From assembly GCA_964016885.1 (NCBI GenBank), contig OZ024748.1, forward strand, positions 41,788,001 through 41,852,000: a stretch of 64,000 nucleotides of DNA, read 5' to 3'. Under the pieces are notes generated by a model. The model was not told the DNA's origin. It was given only the letters and a program-made list of their open reading frames with translations, and searched no databases. Position numbers and translations under genes: made by a program. The DNA comes from Eledone cirrhosa (lineage: Eukaryota). Numbering within the stretch: position 1 is the first letter of the stretch; every line of letters starts with the position of its first letter. Positions 42,039 to 64,000 of this stretch are shown in pieces.

Positions 42039-42582
42039 AATCATAGTTCTGTTAAGTCAGGGACCAATTTGGGAGCTAAATCATAGACCTACTAAGTCAG
42101 GGACCAACTTGGGAGCTAAATCATAGACCTACTAAGTCAGGGACCAGCTTGGGATCTAAATCATAGACCTACTGAGTCAGGGACCAATTTGGGAGCTAAA
42201 GCATAGATCTACTAAGTCAGGGACCAGCTTGGGATCTAAATCATAGACCTACTGAGTCAGGGACCAATTTGGGAGCTAAAGCATAGATCTACTAAGTCAG
42301 GGACCAACTTGGGAGCCAAATCATAGATCTACTAAGTCAGGGACCAATTTGGGAGCTAAAGCATAGATCTACTAAGTCAGGGACCAACTTGGGAGCTAAA
42401 TCATAGACCTACTGAGTCAGGGACCAGCATCATAGACCTACTGAGTCAGGGACCAGCTTGGGAGCTAAATCATAGACCTACTGAGTCAGGGACCAGCTTG
42501 GGAGCTAAATCATAGACCTACTGAGTCAGGGACCAGCTTGGGAGCTAAATCATAGATCTACTGAGTCAGGGACCAGCTTGGT
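42039..42582. repeat. 40-bp minisatellite (ACTAAGTCAGGGACCAACTTGGGAGCTAAATCATAGACCT), about 13 copies, one shortened unit near 42421
   Basis: Visible 40-bp periodicity. Confidence 0.95.
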
Positions 42583-50849: not shown

Positions 50850-51560
50850 TCAAGCACTCCTTCGCACACTGAGGACAACTATGGATCTCCCTGGCCTCAG
50901 GTCTTGCATCACAAAACCATGGAGATCATAGTTCGCTGATTCCCTTTGAACATGGCTGCGACTGTGGCTCCTGAGACGAGATTTGCTAAAGCAAATTTTT
51001 CCACACTCAGGGCACTTCAATTCAATGGAGACACCGATCGTTTCGAGAGATACACCAGGGCATTGCTTACTCACATCCCGTTTGATCTTCTCGTGCTCTA
51101 TGCAGCTGTCCTCAAAATTATGGACCCCATCATTCACCATTCCACGCCAAGTTTCTCTTTCGAGTGCTTCTATCTCCCAGTCAGCCATCATCAAACCAGT
51201 TTTTTTCAATGAGTCCTTTACACAATCTTTGAATCGGAGCTTTGGTTTGTGAGGTGGTCTCTTACCTTTACAAAGCTCACCATACAAAAGTTGTTTCGAT
51301 ATTCGATCATCCTCCATTCTACAAAGGTGTCCGGTCCTTCGCAAACGCCGTTGGTGGATGATACTCTCAATGCTCCGACACTCACTTCTCTCAAGGACCT
51401 TAACATCACTCACGTGCATCTGCCACTTGATACTGAGCATCTTTCTGAGACACTGCTGGTGAAATCGTTCCAGTCTTTTGATATGCCGTTTGTAGGCAAT
51501 CCATGTTTCAGGTGCATAGAGCAATGCTGACAGTACACATGCGGCATATACTTTCACATG
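50850..51560 (-). mobile_element. RTE-clade LINE ORF C-terminal fragment
   Basis: VLSALLYAPETW...RRLRRTGHLCRMEDDRISKQLLYGEL..GKRPPHKPKLRFKD motif and C2H2 finger CPECGKICFSKSRLRSHSRSH. No RT core present. Confidence 0.85.
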
Positions 51561-52410
51561 CATACACACACACTCACTCATAACGAGCTTCCACCGTTTC
51601 CATCTCCCGAAGTTCACTCCCAAAATATTGGTCGGTCCAAGAATCTATAATAGAAGTCACATGTTGGCGAAGCGAAACCCTTAGCCACACAGCCATGTTT
51701 AGTATGTTTATATACAGGTTAAAGGTGAAGCTATGGGCTGTAGCATGGCTGTGTTTCGCGGGAAGGATTCCAGATTCAATCTAGTAACTAGGGAAATATG
51801 TTTCTTATAAAATAATTTAAGGTTGGCCAAGCCTTATACATATTAATGGCTGTGTTTTCATGTATAATCAGAAATAGAAAATGTTTAACATTAACTTAAT
51901 GGCCATTCAATACATATGTAGTAGAGGAACATTGATTTTATTTTACATTTTTTTTTTATATTGTCAGAAGTGTGAGATGTGGAAATAGAGTTGAGAAAAC
52001 TTGATTAACCGGTGCACGCTAACAAATGAACCTTATGGTATCTGTTCCCCTAAAGTTCTACAACAGACGGTCCCGCAGTGTAACAATGATTTGCCCGTTG
52101 GAAACAGAACAAACGACGCTAATGTTTTTAAAATGTCACAGAAAATAAAGTAATATAGTTAATAGGAAACACTGTAAGATATGTAATATTTGCCGTCCTT
52201 TATATAGTTCTACCACATTCTACCGATTGTTTTAAGCTTATCGCTCTTTTATTTCATTTAAAAAAATACGTGTTCGACGAGCCACTTAGCTTTGTAATAA
52301 CGCTAATTACAAATCTTCTTACTATTTTTTCTTCTATCTATTATAATTCCATTCACATCAAAGATCAAGACCGGGCGTCTGTTTTTATTATTATTATTAT
52401 TATTATTATT

Positions 52411-52575: not shown

Positions 52576-53149
52576 CTAGCGATCTCTTCTTCCATATTCT
52601 CCCAAATAAAATAATTTCAACTTAATCTTTGGTAAGTTGACAAACTTAGCTTTTGACATTTTAAGTTCTGGTCAAACTAAGAAAAATTACTAAACTTGCA
52701 TTTTCCAGTAACGGGTCATAAAACCATACGACCCTCACCACCGTTTTAGGTATAACGTGTATGTAAATATATAACACACAAGGGAGAGGATAGCCATATA
52801 ATGTGTCACTATAGTATTGAGAGTGATTTAATATTCTTATAAAATAACTAAGATGTCAAAACTTCATGAACAAATTTTGTCAGAGATTTTGGGCCTAACT
52901 TGTGTCCTTAGAAAGTTCAATTCACAATAATCTATCGTATCTTGTACAAATGCCTCATATCGATAACTTGTGAGAAGAATTAGGTAGACGAAGACTGTGC
53001 AGGAGACCATCTGTTACGTATAATATTACGTTATGGCATTGTTTATCTTACACGAACCGGTGTTCATTGAAAAAAGTTTACTTCTCAATATTATTGTCAT
53101 AACTGCATTGAAACAGAAACTGACCGTTGAAAAACTGCAAAAGTGAGGA

Positions 53150-53177
53150 ATTTCTTTTCTTTTCTTTTTTTTTTTAG
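53150..53177 (+). promoter_or_regulatory. Candidate 3' splice acceptor of a 5'-UTR intron of TBCE copy 1
   Basis: About 25-nt pure pyrimidine tract ending TTTTTAG, 342 nt upstream of the ATG. Confidence 0.4.
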
Positions 53178-53519
53178 AATGTAGCTAAAACAGAATTTAT
53201 TGCAATACAAAATATCCAGTAGTCAAAGAAAATGCCAGGCATTGCGGCCGAAGGAACAAAGTTGGAGGCAGAGAATGAGACACAACAACTCGTATCTCAG
53301 ATTAGGGATTTACCTTTCTCGAATGGGAAGAGAAAATTGCCTTCAAATTGCCATCGAAATGAAAAATAAAGAACACATCTTTTTAATCAAACTCCCTCAC
53401 CACACAATGACTTTAAATAGTTTTACTAAAAAAAGAGTGTTTTATGGGGAGATCACTCTCAGAGTTTCCGGTGATGGTGCGGTAATTCACAGATGACGGT
53501 GAAACATTAAATAATAAAC

Positions 53520-54995
53520 ATGAATCGAACTGATGGCAGTGAACTGGTCATTGGTGACCGTATTGAATGTGACGATTATTTTGGAACGATAAGATTTATC
53601 GGAGAAGTTGAATCAATAGAAGATATTTGGCTGGGTATTGATTGGGACGATATTCAGCGAGGAAAACATGATGGTAGCTATAAAGGTAGGCGTTATTTTC
53701 AAGCAGAACATCCTAAATCTGGTTCATTTATTAAACCTTTAAAGGCCAAATTAGGACAATCTTTCCCCGATGCTTATATTTATAAAATTAACGAAGTTCT
53801 AAATATGCCTGCAAGAATTCTAATACTCAGTCAGTATGCAGTTTATGGTCTTGGAACAAAGGAAGTAAGCAACCAGTTTTCTGAAACTGCTTCAAAAATA
53901 ACCGAATTAGATCTTTCTTATAATCTATTAAACAATTGGACTAATGTTGCTGAAATTGCGAACTTGACTCCTAATTTGTTGAGGTTAAACTTAAGTAATA
54001 ACCGTTTAATAATCCCTGGAAAGACAGACACTTTAGCAAAGTCCTTTTCAAAAGTTGGAAATCTTGTTTTAAACCGAATAAACTACAACTGGTCTGATAT
54101 TTTATCAGTTTCGTCCATGTTTCCGTCCCTTCAAAGTTTGTACGTGTGTTTTAATAATTTGGAAAGATTAATTGATACCAGTGGAAAATTGACAAAACTT
54201 AAATTTCTCACATTGACGGACAATCAAATAAAGGATTGGAATGAAGTTTTAAAACTTGGTCAACTTCCAGCTTTAAACAAACTATATTTAAGTAACAATC
54301 AATTGTCGGATGTATTTTTTAATGACGTATCTTTGGAAGATGGCACAAAATCCTCATATTTTCCTTCTCTTGAAAGTCTCGATTTAAATTACAACCTTAT
54401 TAATATGTCGTCAATTGATGAACTTGGTAAATTAGCGAACCTTACTGAGTTGTCTTGCCTTTATAATCCAGTGAATAATATATATGAGGACAAATTATTT
54501 TATTTCATAGTTGGTAAAATTGGAACTTTAAAAATATATGCAAAAGCAAATTTTAACGACGCAGAACGAAGAAATTGTGAAGTTTATTATCTTCGTATGA
54601 TTGAAAAAATGGCATTAGAGAAAAATATCAGCCAAGAAGATATGGCTAAGCTATATTCAAGGTACAAAGAACTGGTAAAAATATATGGGCATGTGAATCC
54701 TGAATCTTTGGTTAATAAAACTAGTGTACTGCGAGATAAATTAATTACTGTTGATATACAAACTCCTAATGTTCCAGATAAAGTGATCAAAAATAAGAAG
54801 TTATCTCCAAATATGACGATTATGAAACTGAAGTCACTGGTACAAAGACTGTTTAAAATTGAAGAAATAACAAATCTCACTCTATCTTATCTCAGCAAGG
54901 AAAATCCTGAAATAGAGATTCCTTTTGAAAATGACCTGCAACAACTGTCACTATACAGCATGGAAAATGGTGACAGTTTAATTGCCAAGTGGTGA
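53520..54995 (+). CDS. TBCE: Tubulin-specific chaperone E-like protein, copy 1 (491 aa, single coding exon)
   Basis: N-terminal CAP-Gly (GTIRFIGEV...WLGIDWDD..RGKHDGSYKG.RYF), central leucine-rich repeats (LDLSYNLL, LNLSNNRL, LYLSNNQL) and C-terminal ubiquitin-like domain. Intact 1,476-nt ORF. Confidence 0.95.
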   Translation: MNRTDGSELVIGDRIECDDYFGTIRFIGEVESIEDIWLGIDWDDIQRGKHDGSYKGRRYFQAEHPKSGSFIKPLKAKLGQSFPDAYIYKINEVLNMPARILILSQYAVYGLGTKEVSNQFSETASKITELDLSYNLLNNWTNVAEIANLTPNLLRLNLSNNRLIIPGKTDTLAKSFSKVGNLVLNRINYNWSDILSVSSMFPSLQSLYVCFNNLERLIDTSGKLTKLKFLTLTDNQIKDWNEVLKLGQLPALNKLYLSNNQLSDVFFNDVSLEDGTKSSYFPSLESLDLNYNLINMSSIDELGKLANLTELSCLYNPVNNIYEDKLFYFIVGKIGTLKIYAKANFNDAERRNCEVYYLRMIEKMALEKNISQEDMAKLYSRYKELVKIYGHVNPESLVNKTSVLRDKLITVDIQTPNVPDKVIKNKKLSPNMTIMKLKSLVQRLFKIEEITNLTLSYLSKENPEIEIPFENDLQQLSLYSMENGDSLIAKW

Positions 54996-55002
54996 TGTTT
55001 AC

Positions 55003-55198
55003 TTAACCCTTTACCATTTACATTGTATTCTATATTTACTATATTTTCACAGTAAAGGCTTTACTTCAGAATCTTACCTCACATGATATCGAATCTATGA
55101 GATTTTGAGAACAATACCTTAACATCAGTATGAGCAGCTGGTTTCAACAGAAAGAGGTGAGGGAACTCTGACCAGATATGGCCGGTTTAAAGGGTTAA
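55003..55198 (-). mobile_element. piggyBac-type MITE inserted 7 nt after the TBCE copy-1 stop codon
   Basis: TTAA-CCCTTTA ... TAAAGGG-TTAA. Reverse complement of the 44294/45359 family. Copy 2 has a single TTAA at the equivalent site. Confidence 0.9.
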
Positions 55199-56048
55199 TA
55201 ATATTTCAGTTTATTATAATCTTAAAGAGACAATTATTCTGTAATTAAATATGTTCTGCTTCCCTGTATAAAATGTTTTTAACAAGTTAAAATATTCTGT
55301 TTGTTTTTGCTGCCACAGTTAAATTTCAGCTTGAGTATTGTATAATGTATATTGTCATAACAATATACATTATACAAGAATTGGCTAAAAAATTTTAGGC
55401 TGACCAAGATACTCTCATGGAATGACCAAATGAGGTTTATTTTTCAACATAGTCCCTGGAAAGAAACTGCAGTTATTAATAAAAAGAGTTGAAATTAATG
55501 CATACAAGATTTCACAGCTCTAGCATCCTCCTTCATAGTCAGCCTATGAACTTTTCAGCCTACCTCCTTACGTCTGTATTGTATAATTTCAAATCTGAAA
55601 TAATTCTTTTATTTCTATATTATTATTTTACAATCAATTTTGGATGGTGTTTACAAAATTGGTCATTTTTTAATTATATTTTGCAATGGAACAAATCTAT
55701 TTAAAAAATAATCCGAATGAGAGAAGTCTAGCACAATTAATTTTATACTAAAATAGAATAATGGTGTTTTTATGCACATTTAATTAATATGTGCAGAAAA
55801 ACAGAGTAACACTTCCAAACTTCTTTCTTTTCAACCTTTCAAAGGATAAGTTAGCAACTGTCAGTCCACACACACGCACACAATTATTTTAGATGAAAGA
55901 CAAATTTGAACTCGGAATGTAAAGATTTAGAAGAATTTAGTCGAATGTTCTAACAATTCTTCCAATCAAACATTCAAGAATAATAACATCAGTGATGTAA
56001 AACCAAGAAGTTCATCTCAGCACATTTCACAATAAACAAATGAAACTT

Positions 56049-56400
56049 GGAGGTATATGGCTTAGTGGTTAGAGTGTTGGGCTGGTAATTATGAGGTTGT
56101 GAGTTCAATTCCTGGACCAGGTAATAATTGTCTCCTTGAGCAAGACTATTTTACGTTGCTCCAGTTTACTCAGCTGTATATATGAGTTGCAACGTCACTG
56201 GTACCAAACTGTATCAACCTTTGGACAATATATATAGTGTGTATATATATATTGTATACAATGTTTATATAATGTAGAAATGAGTTACAAATATCATTGG
56301 TGCTCAGCTGTATCAGTCATTGACTTTCCTTTGGACATCGGTGAGGAGAGAGATATGCATGAGCGACTGCTGCTCTTCCATAAACAACCTTGCCTGGACT
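56049..56400 (+). mobile_element. tRNA-CORE SINE, degenerate
   Basis: GGAGGTATATGGCTTAGTGGTTAG...GAGTTCAATTCC...CCTTGAGCAAGAC...GCTCCAGTTTACTCAGCTG. Confidence 0.75.
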
Positions 56401-56519
56401 TTTTCTCAGGAATTCATGAATTTTGGTTGAATTTCTCTAATTATAACTTTGATTATATATATATATATATATTGAAAAAAATACAGATTTGTAAAGCATT
56501 TTATTATATATGTATATAT

Positions 56520-57152
56520 ACATAGAAGGCTACGTTGGTATGGACACGTGATGCGCATGAAAGTCGATAGCTGTATAACAAAGTGCAGGGCAATAAAGAT
56601 AGACGGTAGCCACGGAATAGGCAGACCTAGAAAAACCTGGGACGAGCTGATAAACTCCGACCTCACACACTTACACCTCTCCAAGACAATGTCACTGGAC
56701 CGAGACCTTTGGCGGTACTCAGTAACAGAGAAGACCCGCCTTACCTAAATACATAGTAAAACCTACTACAGCCAGTAGGCATCTCTAACAAAATACACCC
56801 CCCCACCCCCCACCCCCGTCCCACCACCACCACCCCATCCACACCACCCCGTTCTATGTAAAGTTATGTTGGTACCACACCATCCAGGCCGAAACAAATG
56901 AGATCGTGTAGGTGTCACGACAAAAAAACACACAGTCCACGCTGTAATGTGGCCGTGTAGGCAACACGGTAAAAACCTCCCAGACCCACACTGTAAATGT
57001 GGTTGGTGTTAGGAAGGGCATCCAACTGTAGAAAACCTGCCAGACAGTCCTATGCGAACAAGACAATCACTCTTGCCCCAGGTGGGACTACCCCCGTCCA
57101 AACCCATGCAAGCGTGGAACACGGACGTTAAACGTTGATGATGATGATGATG
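56520..57152 (+). mobile_element. 5'-truncated RTE-type LINE: ORF end plus 3' UTR ending in (GAT)n
   Basis: RRLRWYGHVMRM...GRPRKTW peptide. The 3' UTR contains GGTTGGTGTTAGGAAGGGCATCC...CATGCAAGCGTGGAACACGGACGTTAAA(GAT)n. Flanked by TA-rich runs. Confidence 0.8.
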
Positions 57153-57465
57153 ATATATATATATATTTATATATATATATATTTATATATATATATACAC
57201 CCACATATATATATATATGCATACACTATAGTGAATGAAAGAAAGAAAACTTTTATTTATTCAGATGTATATAACAATATAAAACATTTTATTACAAAAA
57301 TATATATCGCTGTAGCGTATTAATAGTTAATCAAAATATATTTGTCCAAAATTAAATTCAAAATAAAATGATTATAAAATCCCTGAAAAGAACCAAGTTT
57401 AAATAAAAGTTCAAAAGAAGCAGCAATTATTATTATCATTATTATTATTATCATTGTTATTGTTA

Positions 57466-58283
57466 TTCCTTGAATCTCAGTCATTGATGTTGGTTAACTG
57501 GAAAGTCCGTTGGATTGAATATCAAGCCACTACCTGCAGCCTCAGATATTCAGGACGTATCGGAGGGTTCTTGCTGTTCCAAGCAAGCATGCCTTTTGAA
57601 GCGTTCCAAAAAGCGTGAAGGGGCCGATTTTCTTTAACCATCCCTGGAAACCTTTGGAGATAGTCCCCAGTGCGCCTATGACAATCGGGATCACTTTGAC
57701 TTCATGGCAGTTCCAAATCCTTTTCACCTCCCACTTTAGGTCCTGGTATCGGTTAATTTTCTCCCTCTCCTTCTCTTGCACTCTCGTGTCGAACGGGCAG
57801 GCCACATCCACAATCAGGCACAATCTTTTTTCTTTGTCCACAACCACCAGGTCAGGTCTATTGTGTTCCAGTTTTTTGTCCGTCTGTATCCTAAAATCCC
57901 ACAGCACCTTCACCTGACTGTTCTCCATCACCGCCTCTGGCCTATGCTCATACCATTTCTCAGAATGTGGTAGATTGTTTACTTTGCACAGGTGCCAGTG
58001 GATCACCCTGCCCATCACATCGTGTCTCCAGCCCTTATAGTGGGTCTGGGCTAGGTGTTTACACTCGGACACAATGTGAGCCACAGTCTCCTCTCTCTCT
58101 CCACAGATCCTGCACAGTGGGCTAGCCTCCTCCTTGTAGATATGGTGCTTCAACCACTTCGTTTTGAAGGCCTGCTCCTGCGCAGCCATTAGCATTCCTT
58201 CTGTAGCCTTTTTGAGGTCTCCTCTTCTCAACCAGTTCCATGTCTGTGGATCTCTAAATTCAGTTTTCTCAAAGAAGGTACTA
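57466..58283 (-). mobile_element. R4/Dong-type (restriction-like endonuclease) non-LTR retrotransposon 3' fragment in (TAA)n
   Basis: CCHC knuckle CRIC..ETVAHIVSEC, RHD, RPDL...IVDVACP...K..Y and PIVIGALG motifs. (ATT)n tracts flank both sides, as expected for Dong target preference. Confidence 0.9.
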
Positions 58284-58345
58284 TGAAGGGATTATTATTA
58301 TCATTATTATCATTATTATTATCATTATTATTATTACATAAAAAA

Positions 58346-58545
58346 GGGCGGTGGATTGGCAGTATCGGTAGAGGGTCAGACGCCATGCTTTCCAGCATAG
58401 TTACGTCCCTTTACGATCTGAGTTCAAATCCCGCCGAGGTTGACTTTGCCTTTCATCCTTACGGGGTCGATAAAATAAAGTACCAGTAATGCACTGGGTA
58501 ATTGCTGGCCTTGTGCCTAAAGTAGAAACAATTATTATTATTACA
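58346..58545 (+). mobile_element. Full-length tRNA-derived SINE (Nin/Deu-type family)
   Basis: GGGCGGTGGATTGGCAGTATCGGTAG (A box-like) ... GAGTTCAAATCC (B box) ... (ATT)n tail. Confidence 0.88.
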
Positions 58546-58627
58546 TAATTCCTTGTTTTTATGGACAGCATGAATAATATTATTTAGTGTCTGCACTGAG
58601 CTTTAACTGTTTGTGGATTATATATAT

Positions 58628-59066
58628 CATCATCATCACCAATTTACGTCCGTTCTTCCACGCTAGCATGGGTTTGACAGGTTGTCCTGTTGTGGTCAGT
58701 GTCCAGTCGGCTGACCTTGTCTTGCTCATACGGGAACTGATTCCGGCTTGATTTCTACAGATGGATGCCCTTCCTAACACCAACCTTATTTACAGTGAGT
58801 GCTGGGTGCTTTTTTTTCCGTGGCGCCTACACGTCCATTTTACAGTGAGGGCTGGGTGCTTTTTTGCCGTGGCACCTCCATGACCATTTTGCAGTGGAAT
58901 GATAGGGACCCCAGTCCCTATCATCTCATTTCTACAGCTGAGTAAACTGGAGCAATGAGAAATAAAGTATCTTGCTCAAGGAAACAACACATCACCCGGT
59001 CTGAGAATTGAACTCACAACCTTTCGTTTGCAATCCCAAAGCTCTAACCACTAAGCCATGTGCCTT
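58628..59066 (-). mobile_element. tRNA-CORE SINE with RTE-type tail and an internal duplication of about 50 bp
   Basis: Near-identical to 45006-45347. TTACAGTGAG..GCTGGGTGCTTTTT..CCGTGGC occurs twice. Confidence 0.85.
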
Positions 59067-59238
59067 CATATATATATATATTGGAATGCATTTATTGTTG
59101 GCTTTAAGAAGGGTATTCAGCCGTAGAAACCAGCAAAAAACTGTCATCCGACCTGGATGTCTTACAACAGGATGGCACGTCTTATCCATGGTAGCGTGGA
59201 AAATGGATGTTATGATGATTATATATATATATATATAT

Positions 59239-59671
59239 GGGATAACAAGTTATCATTATAGGTAATCCAGTTAGAGGTTGTGAGTACTCTGCGTCGTGGA
59301 TTGTTTCAACGTGCGGCTTTTTTTTACTCAACAAGATGCTTCCATAGTTATGCAGCGAGTTTGTGGTAATTTTTATGCAGGTTGTAGTTGGAGTAATAAT
59401 AGTTAAAGAATGAAGATTAACATGGTTGGCTGTACAATAAGGGCTTTATTTAAAGTACTGACAATTGTTTCGTTGATCATGTGGGTCTAGAGTTCGCTAT
59501 CTACATGCTCTGATGTGTTGACCATAGGTGAATAATGTATTGGAGATCGAATAACACAACATCAAGCGATTAGCGAACTCTAGACCCACATGATCAACGA
59601 AACAATTGTCAGTACTTTAAATAAAGCCCTTATTGTACAGCCAACCATGTTAATCTTCATTCTTTAACTAT
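59239..59671. mobile_element. Probable Penelope-like element remnant: perfect 101-bp inverted repeat with a hammerhead-like motif, inserted in (TA)n
   Basis: Arms 59399-59499 and 59571-59671 are exact reverse complements. CTGATG(59510)...GAAAC-AATT-GTC(59599-59610) is followed by AATAAA(59620). TA runs lie on both sides. Confidence 0.6.
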
Positions 59672-59809
59672 ATATATATATATATATATATAGTTATCCT
59701 CCATTATTTGCAGGAGTTATCTTCCTAGAGCACCTACAAATATTGGACGTGGTTCATAAAAATGCCTATAAATGTCAAAATATTGTGTAAAATATAATAA
59801 AAAGAGAGG

Positions 59810-60026
59810 GACCGTCTTATGTGAAGGGGCGTCCAATAGGCCAACAAATACGGTATAGTGTTGTTATTAATTTATAGGTTAAAAAAATATATATTGCCAT
59901 AAAAAATTGCAGAAGATATTTACGATTCTGCGAATATGTAGTGGTTTCCATGAACAATTATTAGTTAGGTTCTAATGAAAATTATGCAAATAACTAGGAA
60001 CGTGAATGCCGGGGGTACACTGTATA
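59810..60026. mobile_element. Possible Tc1/mariner-Tigger-type MITE ends
   Basis: Termini-like strings AAATACGG-TA (about 59855) and CGGGGGTACACTG-TA (about 60025). Partner TIRs not found. Confidence 0.25.
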
Positions 60027-60089
60027 TATTATTGAAAAAGTGTCCTGTGTGGCTAAGATCATACAAAATAAATTTTTTTAAATGGTGGG

Positions 60090-60395
60090 TTAAGACAACA
60101 GAAAAATAGACGAAACACAGGACAGTCCATTCTCATGTTTTGCCAACATTTTGATGTCCTTTGCAACTTTAATTTCAGAATCACCGTCACTTTCAAACTG
60201 TAATCCAAATTCTTCTGCAAACTTCCTACTTTCCTTTGTGATTGAATGTAACCTCTTCCTTTTGTGATCTGCAACCATTTTCTTCATCCAGTCATCTGTA
60301 GTTTTAAGGTATTAATTGAGCCCAATGGTATGACAGCTCAAGCTGGATCATTCCTCCACCTACATTTTGTTTAGGGAGATGACAAAATGGAGGTA
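60090..60395 (-). mobile_element. Degraded R4/Dong-type LINE fragment (post-RT region)
   Basis: Minus strand reads HLPKQNVGGGMIQLELSY..., then YLKTTDDWMKKMVADH...LHSITKESRKF with disruptions. Resembles the LYLPR-x-GGRGL thumb motif. Confidence 0.6.
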
Positions 60396-60595
60396 TTGTT
60401 ATTGTAGGTGTTGGCTTTCTCCACAACTGACCCTCAGAAGTCTCTCTATTGGGGAATTTTTCCTTGTTTCTTTTTTTGTTACATCCTGTTTTTGTTTTTT
60501 ACATGCAGAAATGCCCAATTGTAACGTCCTGTACTGTCCTTAATGTTATACTTTATGTCAACCCTTCTGGTTAATAAAGAAAACATTATTATTCT

Positions 60596-60790
60596 AGGTG
60601 GCTTGGCAGTATCGGTAGTGGGTCGGACACCATGATTTTCAGCGTAGAGTTGTGGCCCTTTACAGTCTGCGTTCAAATCCCGCCGAGGTTAACTTTGCCT
60701 TTCATCCTTACGGGGTCGATAAAATAAAGTACCAGTAATGCACTGAGTATTTCTGGCCTTGTGCCAAAAAGTAGAATCAATTATTATTAG
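60596..60790 (+). mobile_element. SINE (Nin/Deu-type family)
   Basis: Same consensus as 58346-58545. Confidence 0.85.
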
Positions 60791-61363
60791 GACAGTGAAT
60801 TGTTACGTCCCCTGTAAAATTAATTGACTTATCTCCCCTGTAAATTATTATTAATCTGGTGCGCACATTTGAAAGGGTTGAAAACAAGTACTTACCTCTT
60901 CAGCAAAGACCTGTTTAACTTTTTCAGGTTTCACTTGAAGAGGGAAGTGCTACCTTCCAACCAGTTTGTTGAAAGGTGGGAGAGTGGTGAGCACGGCTCG
61001 TGTAAATGGACCTGCTCTGAGTATACACCTGTAGATGGATAGTGGCACTTAAGTTTAACATCAGTTAGAGTAACAATGGCATTATGTGGGCTTTCTCCAC
61101 AAATGACCCTCAGAGGTCACTCCCACTTCTATTGAGGAATCAGTTTTTGTTTGTTTGATTTTTAAATGTTTATTTTCTTAAATTTTGTTATAACTTTTTT
61201 TTTTTTTCACACACAAAACCCCACAGTTTGCTTAATGTCAGTCATTTCAGGTTAATAAAGAAATCGTTATAATCAAAAATTGGAGAAACCATTATTATTA
61301 TTATAACAACAACAGAATAATTGTCTCTTTAAGATTATAATAAACTGGAATGTTAAGTAAACA

Positions 61364-62839
61364 TCACCACTTGGCAATTAAACTGTCAACATTTTCCATG
61401 CTGTATAGTGACAGTTGTTGCAGGTCATTTTGTAAATAAATCTCAATTTCAGGATTTTCCTTGCTGAGATAAAATAGAGTGACATTTGTTATTTCTTCAA
61501 TTTTAAACAGTCTTTGTACCAGTGACTTCAGTTTCATAATCGTCATATTTGGAGATAACTTCTTATTTTTGATCACTTTATCTGGAACATTAGGAGTTTG
61601 TATATCAACAGTAATTAATTTATCTCGCAGTACACTAGTTTTATTAACCAAAGATTCAGGATTCACATGCCCATATATTTTTACCAGTTCTTTGTACCTT
61701 GAATATAGCTTAGCCATATCTTCTTGGCTGATATTTTTCTCTAATGCCATTTTTTCAATCATACGAAGATAATAAACTTCACAATTTTTTCGTTCTGCGT
61801 CGTTAAAATTTGCTTTTGCATATATTTTTAAAGTTCCAATTTTACCAACTATGAAATAAAATAATTTGTCCTCATATATATTATTCACTGGATTATAAAG
61901 GCAAGACAACTCAGTAAGGTTCGCTAATTTACCAAGTTCATCAATTGACGACATATTAATAAGGTTGTAATTTAAATCGAGACTTTCAAGAGAAGGAAAA
62001 TATGAGGATTTTGTGCCATCTTCCAAAGATACGTCATTAAAAAATACATCCGACAATTGATTGTTACTTAAATATAGTTTGTTTAAAGCTGGAAGTTGAC
62101 CAAGTTTTAAAACTTCATTCCAATCCTTTATTTGATTGTCCGTCAATGTGAGAAATTTAAGTTTTGTCAATTTTCCACTGGTATCAATTAATCTTTCCAA
62201 ATTATTAAAACACACGTACAAACTTTGAAGGGACGGAAACATGGACGAAACTGATAAAATATCAGACCAGTTGTAGTTTATTCGGTTTAAAACAAGATTT
62301 CCAACTTTTGAAAAGGACTTTGCTAAAGTGTCTGTCTTTCCAGGGATTATTAAACGGTTATTACTTAAGTTTAACCTCAACAAATTAGGGGTCAAGTTTG
62401 CAATTTCAGCAACATTAGTCCAATTGCTGAATAGATTATAAGAAAGATCTAATTCGGTTATTTTTGAAGCAGTTTCAGAAAACTGGTTGCTTACTTCCTT
62501 TGTTCCAAGACCATAAACTGCATACTGACTGAGTATTAGAATTCTTGCAGGCATATTTAGAACTTCGTTAATTTTATAAATATAAGCATCGGGGAAAGAT
62601 TGTCCTAATTTGGCCTTTAAAGGTTTAATAAATGAACCAGATTTAGGATGTTCTGCTTGAAAATAACGCCTACCTTTATAGCTACCATCATGTTTTCCTC
62701 GCTGAATATCGTCCCAATCAATACCCAGCCAAATATCTTCTATTGATTCAACTTCTCCGATAAATTTTATCGTCCCAAAATAATCGTCACATTCAATACG
62801 GTCACCAATGACCAGTTCACTGCCATCAGTTCGATTCAT
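61364..62839 (-). CDS. TBCE: Tubulin-specific chaperone E-like protein, copy 2 (491 aa, single coding exon)
   Basis: Same CAP-Gly/LRR/UBL architecture; 10 amino-acid differences from copy 1; ORF intact. Confidence 0.95.
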   Translation of the reverse strand: MNRTDGSELVIGDRIECDDYFGTIKFIGEVESIEDIWLGIDWDDIQRGKHDGSYKGRRYFQAEHPKSGSFIKPLKAKLGQSFPDAYIYKINEVLNMPARILILSQYAVYGLGTKEVSNQFSETASKITELDLSYNLFSNWTNVAEIANLTPNLLRLNLSNNRLIIPGKTDTLAKSFSKVGNLVLNRINYNWSDILSVSSMFPSLQSLYVCFNNLERLIDTSGKLTKLKFLTLTDNQIKDWNEVLKLGQLPALNKLYLSNNQLSDVFFNDVSLEDGTKSSYFPSLESLDLNYNLINMSSIDELGKLANLTELSCLYNPVNNIYEDKLFYFIVGKIGTLKIYAKANFNDAERKNCEVYYLRMIEKMALEKNISQEDMAKLYSRYKELVKIYGHVNPESLVNKTSVLRDKLITVDIQTPNVPDKVIKNKKLSPNMTIMKLKSLVQRLFKIEEITNVTLFYLSKENPEIEIYLQNDLQQLSLYSMENVDSLIAKW

Positions 62840-63199
62840 GTTTATTATTTAATGTTTCACCGTCATCTGTGAATTAACACACCATCACTGGGAACTCTGA
62901 GAGTGATTTCCCTTTCCATTGACAAACGATCTTCATTGTCGCTCGATTCCCCGGATTTATTTCACATTCTCAAATGATATACAGTATTCTACAATACAAC
63001 CACCATATATCAGACTTGCCAAACTCTAAAATCCCAAATGGTGAGTACCATGAAAAAAAGTGCCCCAAAACTGGGAGAAATGGGGAGATTCTACATAATG
63101 AAAACTATACCCATTTTCACAAGAAAAGACTTCTCTCACCCAACCCAAACTGAGTGGGAGATCTCCCCGTCGGACGGGAGAGTTGACACGTCTGATTGT

Positions 63200-63380: not shown

Positions 63381-63684
63381 CTGGTTGCAGATTTCAATGA
63401 TTCCTGCACTGAATACCTCAAAATATTGTAACATCTTCCTCTTTAGGTTTTTATTAAATATCTAAATATATATATCATTGTAAACATTTTCTGGGGCTAA
63501 GGGACTTTAACCCCTCCAATATTTTGTTTCAATATACTTCAGCTTTGGTTTTTACTACTCTGATTTTCTACTCCAAGTATGTTAGTATGATGTTTTTTTA
63601 AATTTCTTTCTTAGTCTAGCAATGATGATAAAAGTGTGAGCTAATAATAATAATCGTTTCTACTGTTGGCACAAGGCCAGCAAT

Positions 63685-64000
63685 TACCTCAGTTATCACC
63701 ACATGTTATATTACCTCAGTCACCACCACATGTTATATTACCTCAGTCACCACCACATGTTACGTTACCTCAGTCACCACCACATGTTACGTTACCTCAG
63801 TCATCACCACATGTAGATAACCATCTAATATTCCCAAACATTACCCCAGTCACCACTACATGTTACAGTACCCCATTCCTCACCACATGTTATATTTCCA
63901 AAACATTACCCCAGTCACCACCACATGTTACAGTACCCCAGTCATCACCACATGTTACATTCCGAAGCAGTACCCCAGTCACCACATGTTACAGTAGCCC
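63685..64000. repeat. 27-bp minisatellite (TACCTCAGTCACCACCACATGTTATAT), open at the right edge
   Basis: TACCTCAG at 63685, 63712, 63739, 63766 and 63793, then longer variant units. Confidence 0.92.

Follow-up and report, generated by a model that had tools for sequence, protein, structure and literature searches.

The stretch of DNA analysed here (the window; 64,000 nucleotides of Eledone cirrhosa, contig OZ024748.1, positions 41,788,001 to 41,852,000 of the forward strand) carries toward its right end an inverted pair of genes for the tubulin chaperone TBCE, referred to below as copies A and B. Both are intact intronless open reading frames (ORFs) starting from ATG. They are convergent, with 6,368 bp between the two stop codons. 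A preliminary description made from the letters of the window had reported two intact 491-aa ORFs facing each other across about 6.4 kb, in agreement with the measured distance, and had proposed that they form a retro-derived pair, older than the identity of their coding sequences (CDS) suggests and kept alike by gene conversion. The coordinates of the features are collected in Table 1.

The inverted arms (53447-55007 and 61352-62912) align without gaps over 1,561 nt, with 20 mismatches. Within the CDS, A and B differ at 15 of 1,476 nucleotides, 4 changes being synonymous and 11 non-synonymous; synonymous divergence amounts to about 1.3% (4 of about 306 sites). One replacement, G484V in copy B, alters a glycine that is nearly invariant in the protein alignment. 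The differences sit at CDS positions 66-74, 411-450, 1052 and 1357-1451, leaving just one in the 906 nt of the center (positions 451-1356). The about 15 differences and the nearly identical central 900 bp originally estimated by eye are thus borne out by the count. Compared with 200,000 uniform placements, the clustering of the 15 differences gave p = 4.5e-5, 0.006 and 0.0008 with three statistics; merging neighboring changes into 11 events gave p = 0.003, 0.037 and 0.013. Homology between the copies begins 73 nt 5′ of the ATG, and the leader so defined differs at 5 of 73 positions. Altogether the non-coding part of the arm carries 7 differences in 129 nt as against 15 in the 1,476 nt of the CDS (Fisher p = 0.001), which confirms the initial impression that the outer parts are the more diverged. 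No arm-to-arm homology was found beyond the arms in a comparison of both flanks, and the approximately 100 nt upstream of the leader of copy B have no other match in a genome search.

Past the stop codon, the homology extends for 52 nt in B. In A, it is broken 12 nt past the stop by a 188-bp miniature inverted-repeat transposable element (MITE), which we take to be piggyBac-like from its TTAA target sites. The limits first given for the homology, about 73 bp before the ATG and about 50 bp after the stop, hold for the 5′ side and for B, but the element that interrupts the A side had gone undescribed. Homology resumes after the MITE (55199-55242) with 2 substitutions in 44 nt and a 3-nt indel; here B has a 3-nt deletion relative to A, to a TBCE fragment found elsewhere in the genome and to a related species (both presented below). 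The MITE is present behind A and absent both behind B and from the fragment. Its relatives in the genome number 4,674 candidates, of which 40 were scored. The element behind A departs from the majority of 28 genomic copies at 27 of 188 positions, and the nearest of these 28 is 14% away, a divergence about ten times the synonymous divergence between A and B. Judging from this figure, the insertion behind A is old. The sequence that follows, the 3′ flank of A, is unique in the genome.

Short-read contigs of one sequencing run, X5, come from another organism, about 8% diverged, and allow the two loci to be compared between species; variant-site counts for this run are lower bounds, taken from the listed sites. 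A 1,097-nt contig of depth 33.5 covers the central CDS and differs by 88 letters from A and by 83 from B. Over the same approximately 1,095 sites A and B differ at 7. For 7 as against at least 83 differences over this 1.1 kb, the Poisson p is about 5e-27. The contig splits at 61555-61744 into pieces of depth 19.3 and 15.5, and the pieces toward the 5′ end have depths of 17-18. Among the contigs of X5 listed at repeats, the seven other long ones range from 12.7 to 17.2 in depth. Because the central contig has double depth and splits into pieces of single depth, the related species appears to have two near-identical copies. Both 3′ flanks are also found there. A 570-nt contig (depth 17.9) links the end of the CDS to the 3′ flank of B, with an empty TTAA and no MITE, whereas a 242-nt contig (depth 16.3) carries the last 7 nt of the MITE joined to the 3′ flank of A (55188-55416). 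Since X5 carries both locus-specific 3′ flanks, the two loci with their respective MITE states would predate the split of the species. Over 229 nt (61356-61584), the contig orthologous to B shows 19 listed differences from A and 22 from B, with 16 in common; at its eight sites diagnostic for A or B, it has the letter of A five times, that of B twice and neither once. Furthermore, A and B have in common a 3-nt deletion near codon 296 that is seen neither in X5 nor in any of the 12 other TBCE proteins aligned with them. Polarized with X5, the 15 differences between A and B divide into 8 that seem derived in A and 7 that seem derived in B. Judging from these contigs, the copies within a species are far more alike than orthologues.

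The simplest account of two such similar genes would be that they are young, having arisen by a recent duplication, or by independent ones in each species, with no conversion at all. The mere 1% divergence of the CDS fits this account, as does the short, mRNA-sized unit, reminiscent of a fresh retrocopy; in principle the two halves of the X5 depth could also be haplotypes. Nevertheless, a young pair is hard to reconcile with a related species in which both locus-specific 3′ flanks occur, each in the corresponding MITE state, with a MITE at least 14% from its nearest sampled relative and yet absent from B, with 7 as against at least 83 differences, or with the clustering of the differences. We consider this account very improbable. 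The two claims, of an age greater than the CDS identity suggests and of homogenization by conversion, are both upheld, the former by the flanks and the MITE, the latter by the excess of orthologue over paralogue differences, by the common deletion at codon 296 and by the clustering. Very probably, therefore, the inverted TBCE pair is older than the split from the related species and has been homogenized since by arm-to-arm gene conversion on repeated occasions. The course of events could have been as follows. A local inverted duplication of the octopod TBCE gene, likely before the split, would have produced the pair. A break in one arm would then be repaired off the other arm, resulting in ectopic gene conversion in cis, frequent in the middle of the arm and rarer toward its ends. 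In each patch, mutations would have accumulated after its last conversion, and the 15 differences now present would be these, divided about evenly between the copies. The identity would peak mid-arm and decay toward the ends because pairing is disrupted there by the MITE and by flanks without homology. As derived changes are divided between A and B (8 and 7), neither copy appears to be a fixed donor.

The possibility was considered that the pair is an assembly artefact, that is, a single locus or a pair of alleles entered twice, the second time inverted, or two older copies made alike by consensus error. The 99% identity could be so explained. However, the flanks of the two copies differ on both sides, and contigs assembled from reads of the same species reproduce the junctions. 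A contig of run X2 spans the upstream flank and 5′ junction of A (52600-53512), and contigs of run X3 tile copy B from 61144 to 63062, both junctions included; each of these contigs has 0 or 1 letters other than those of the assembly, and the junctions themselves are reproduced exactly. A-type and B-type variants both appear in the 3′ patch in X2 and X3, and long contigs match the near-identical center with 0-1 other letters. The reads thus support both copies, rather than the single one that the preliminary description had envisaged as the contrary outcome. The related species also appears to have two copies, and an artefact is scarcely credible. Runs X2 to X4 are not independent of the assembly, possibly coming from the assembled individual; X1 and X5 are other samples. 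X1, which may be an RNA run, is small (88 million letters of contigs versus about 1,400 million for X2-X4) and leaves bins of the spacer uncovered. It yields one 1,625-nt contig (53483-55107) identical to copy A at all 15 diagnostic CDS sites; since contigs drop rare variants and give neither strand nor level, X1 says nothing on read-through, on editing or on silence of B. This contig halts precisely where the leader has its last site diagnostic for A or B (53482/53483, or 62876/62877 in B), like a genomic contig of X3, which would weakly fit the presence of both leader types in X1. Another sample, X6, is represented by restriction-site-associated (RAD) reads, which leave the CDS almost uncovered.

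A number of points weigh against a conversion-homogenized old pair. The comparison between species is with one related species, one run and short-read contigs only; in it, the identity of the copies is deduced from depth, and the contigs give neither adjacency nor orientation of the loci. The copy orthologous to A is not seen over the last approximately 200 nt of the CDS, and the presence of the MITE behind it rests on 7 aligned letters. The age of the MITE derives from 28 of 42 further matches listed, and a closer copy may exist. In sample S2, the A and B variants of the 3′ patch occur at a depth of about 1:2 (3.3:6.6 in X2, 5:10.8 in X3) and the depth of the CDS (11.6 and 15.4) is only about 1.4-1.5 times that of the flanks; this low depth of the CDS would also fit an artefact. 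The depths agree better with three copies than with four; one haplotype of S2 may lack A, or the reads may be unevenly spread. The differences between A and B are mostly non-synonymous (11 of 15), with a dN/dS of about 0.8 from small counts. Finally, the search of the genome for further TBCE copies proceeded exon by exon as a loose first look, which a parent gene made of tiny exons could escape.

The products of A and B are TBCE proteins by several measures. The CAP-Gly domain (PF01302) occupies residues 11-75 of both (E = 2.6e-20 and 5.5e-20, respectively), leucine-rich repeats (LRR_4/LRR_8) score above the cut-off, and both have the C-terminal ubiquitin-like domain ending in Trp. Human TBCE (9m1k_E) matches with E = 1e-72 and is aligned to its last residue; structures of the TBCE C-terminal domain (1wjn, 4icu) match residues 406-491. 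Nearest among 30 homologues are Octopus bimaculoides XP_014777020.1 (71% identity) and the TBCE-like protein of Argonauta hians GAB1609272.1 (59%). In a tree that includes 17 of 35 proteins (plant, fungal and some arthropod rows, as well as P0032, being left out), A and B are sisters, joined successively by O. bimaculoides (98/95) and by Argonauta (100/98). By this strongly supported position, the pair is the octopod TBCE orthologue itself and not a divergent side copy. All eight cephalopod-type TBCE rows of the alignment lack about 36-38 residues between CAP-Gly and the leucine-rich repeats (near residues 90-95), and the same eight lack 8 residues near residue 370; the six rows from non-cephalopod molluscs and insects (abalone, clam, limpet, insects) keep the residues in question. 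From the alignment, the shortening appears to be a coleoid-wide structural change in the arm of the protein that carries alpha-tubulin. In the interval 53585-54029, 19 of the 36 listed differences to X5 fall on first or second codon positions by hand count; taken with the 71% identity to O. bimaculoides, this makes the evolution of TBCE in octopods seem fast.

TBCE is normally single-copy, and in vertebrates the family is multi-exon. No intron-containing or other full-length TBCE was found in the genome with protein A, its DNA, abalone TBCE and the CAP-Gly family as queries. A candidate parent gene on C2 (L003:1500-1640; G000:C2 near 101195029, minus strand) was rejected; it is a 5′-truncated fragment of about 170 nt, 78% identical, in which 3 nt are deleted and the last codon has become a stop; no further TBCE exons lie within the 120 kb around it. 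The 3′ non-coding homology of this fragment ends near the same point as that between A and B, a weak hint that copies may have been made from RNA. Inspection by eye of the ends of A, B and the fragment revealed neither a poly(A) remnant nor a target-site duplication; such marks decay with age. Other CAP-Gly matches in the genome reach at best E = 4.7e-4 against the TBCE queries. Among CAP-Gly-like sequences, four weak matches of equal score on the minus strand of C5 (G000:C5 12599241, 12773564, 12962341 and 13169816), spaced 174-207 kb apart, suggest a large tandem segmental repeat. In the related species the TBCE CDS is likewise intronless over the contiguous 1,097-nt contig; a scan of metagenome contigs yielded 80 loci, of which 0 belong to a close relative. 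The claim of a retro-derived pair with a surviving parent is thus not sustained. With no parent found, an orthologue position in the tree and a contiguous CDS in X5, TBCE would be natively single-exon in this clade, a circumstance that the preliminary description had named as refuting its reading and that bears on the origin of the pair and not on conversion. "Retro-derived" could at most describe an old retrogene replacement. The pair is likely younger than the intronless state, which may go back to an ancient retrogene that replaced its parent; the second copy could have originated at either the DNA or the RNA level.

According to PMC13155304 and PMC4574351, TBCE binds TBCD, Arl2 and alpha-tubulin within the TBC-DEG chaperone; its function is further treated in PMC4672084. 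PMC4574351 also reports that both loss and overexpression of TBC proteins, TBCE included, are harmful, the microtubules being destroyed. Since either change is harmful, TBCE dosage would matter. As 11 of the 15 differences are non-synonymous, there is no sign of selection keeping both copies identical; for this reason we prefer to regard the second copy as a passenger that conversion from an essential gene keeps intact, and give this a slightly better than even chance. Selection of the second copy for dosage or for a separate expression pattern ranks below it, at somewhat short of an even chance. A further possibility combines conversion with an RNA device. Read-through transcription would fold the arms into a duplex of about 1.5 kb, which would be edited by ADAR or diced and so limit TBCE dosage. 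The geometry of the arms permits a near-perfect stem, the harm reported for both loss and excess of TBCE would provide a use for it, and coleoids are known for extensive A-to-I editing. The same geometry belongs to every inverted gene pair and so does not point to the device in particular. Moreover, read-through would have to exceed 6 kb and to run through the poly(A)-signal hexamers that lie 249 nt beyond the stop of A and 190 nt beyond that of B (an AATAAA), and the two mRNAs have the same sense sequence and are not mutually complementary. Nothing observed supports the duplex RNA, its editing or dicing into endo-siRNA, or the dosage control first proposed, and we allow such a device no more than a slim chance. 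The same slim odds apply to a more elaborate scenario, whereby a single-exon, internally shortened TBCE retrogene of the coleoid ancestor was later duplicated face to face in one octopod lineage; conversion would preserve a 1.5-kb stem good enough for read-through RNA to fold back, and the editing or dicing of this RNA would let the pair limit its own output.

The spacer is repeat-rich: 41% of it is matched by 381 kb of other loci alone, and several of its elements show very high read-contig depth, in keeping with the many transposable element insertions first noted there. At 59399-59671, a perfect inverted repeat of 101 nt with a 71-nt loop is probably a young foldback element or a local template-switch duplication. 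Open frames at 57542-58195 and 50850-51581 (minus strand; 217 and 243 aa) have no Pfam match; to us they look like C-terminal parts of proteins of retrotransposons lacking long terminal repeats (non-LTR). A second spacer haplotype of sample S2 is seen in an X2 contig over 55536-56146, which departs from the assembly at 7 letters and has 25 gap positions against it. The left part of the window (1-41945) is occupied by an array of a 70-71-bp satellite with strong strand skew, which also fills all of the 40 kb examined leftward and thus extends for at least 82 kb. The array has a 2,276-bp higher-order period in part and ends 11.5 kb from copy A; it is possibly pericentromeric and could affect expression of copy A. 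Smaller tandem arrays lie on both sides of the pair, with units of 40 bp (42039-42581) and 27 bp (63683-64000, continuing into the adjoining locus L017). An Rfam scan of 42000-64000 returned 0 matches.

Table 1. Features of the inverted TBCE pair (positions in the window)
Feature	Position	Strand
Leader of copy A, 73 nt, common to copy B, 5 differences	53447..53519	+
TBCE copy A, intronless CDS, 491 aa	53520..54995	+
MITE of 188 bp (55007-55194), short terminal inverted repeats, TTAA copies at 55003-55006 and 55195-55198	55003..55198	
Remaining 3′ sequence common to A and B; ATTAAA at 55244, then the unique 3′ flank of A	55199..55242	+
Spacer with no arm-to-arm homology; fragments of short and long interspersed elements (SINE, LINE) and of MITEs, microsatellites	55243..61311	
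3′ sequence of copy B, 52 nt, common to A; empty TTAA site	61312..61363	-
TBCE copy B, intronless CDS, 491 aa, with G484V	61364..62839	-
Leader of copy B, 73 nt, common to copy A	62840..62912	-

The TBCE pair offers an unusually clean and datable case of concerted evolution in a cephalopod. Because the MITE marker and a relative about 8% diverged bracket its age, the rate of conversion and the limits of its tracts could be estimated in a large, repeat-rich genome. It also calls for caution, in that the age of a duplicate cannot be read from a paralogue identity of 99% and short-read assemblies collapse pairs of this kind. Two questions are raised: why two intact copies are kept of a chaperone whose excess reportedly destroys microtubules, and whether TBCE is an orphan retrogene, short of about 37 residues, throughout the coleoids. 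No report on the structure or duplication of cephalopod TBCE was found in open-access PMC and bioRxiv, where supplements of genome papers could list the duplicate, and listings of the literature on cephalopod retrogenes or intron loss held nothing on TBCE.

The closest parallels are the Amy-p/Amy-d, Hsp70Aa/Ab and Hsp70Ba/Bb genes of Drosophila (reviewed in PMC3924832), linked mirror-image paralogues that are older than their host species and resemble each other within a species more closely than they do their orthologues; the concerted evolution of Amy affects the coding sequence alone, its flanks evolving independently. The TBCE pair resembles them in being composed of linked inverted paralogues, in all likelihood duplicated before speciation, and closer to each other than to their orthologues, and it resembles Amy in that homogenization is largely confined to the coding region, as the density of non-coding relative to coding differences indicates. 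Unlike Amy and Hsp70, TBCE is a tubulin chaperone, reportedly harmful when overexpressed; it lies in a repeat-rich mollusc genome of 3 Gb and has a dated transposon marker at the end of the tract. Polymorphisms common to paralogues were demonstrated for Hsp70; for the TBCE pair, the 1:2 variant ratio of sample S2 cannot be phased. Within cephalopods, PMC9635652 describes possible gene conversion among linked duplicates in the reflectin and tyrosinase clusters of Argonauta argo. Those clusters are mostly tandem, highly expressed and multi-copy, whereas TBCE is an inverted, two-copy housekeeping gene with a test across species. With the amphioxus SYCP1 gene, presented in PMC5803294 as a retrogene replacement or orphan retrogene, TBCE has in common a single coding exon and the failure to find another full-length copy in the genome. 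In contrast to SYCP1, the single-exon TBCE gene was further duplicated and has probably come under concerted evolution. A known process, concerted evolution of the Amy/Hsp70 type, accounts well for the TBCE pair and would here act on a new gene.

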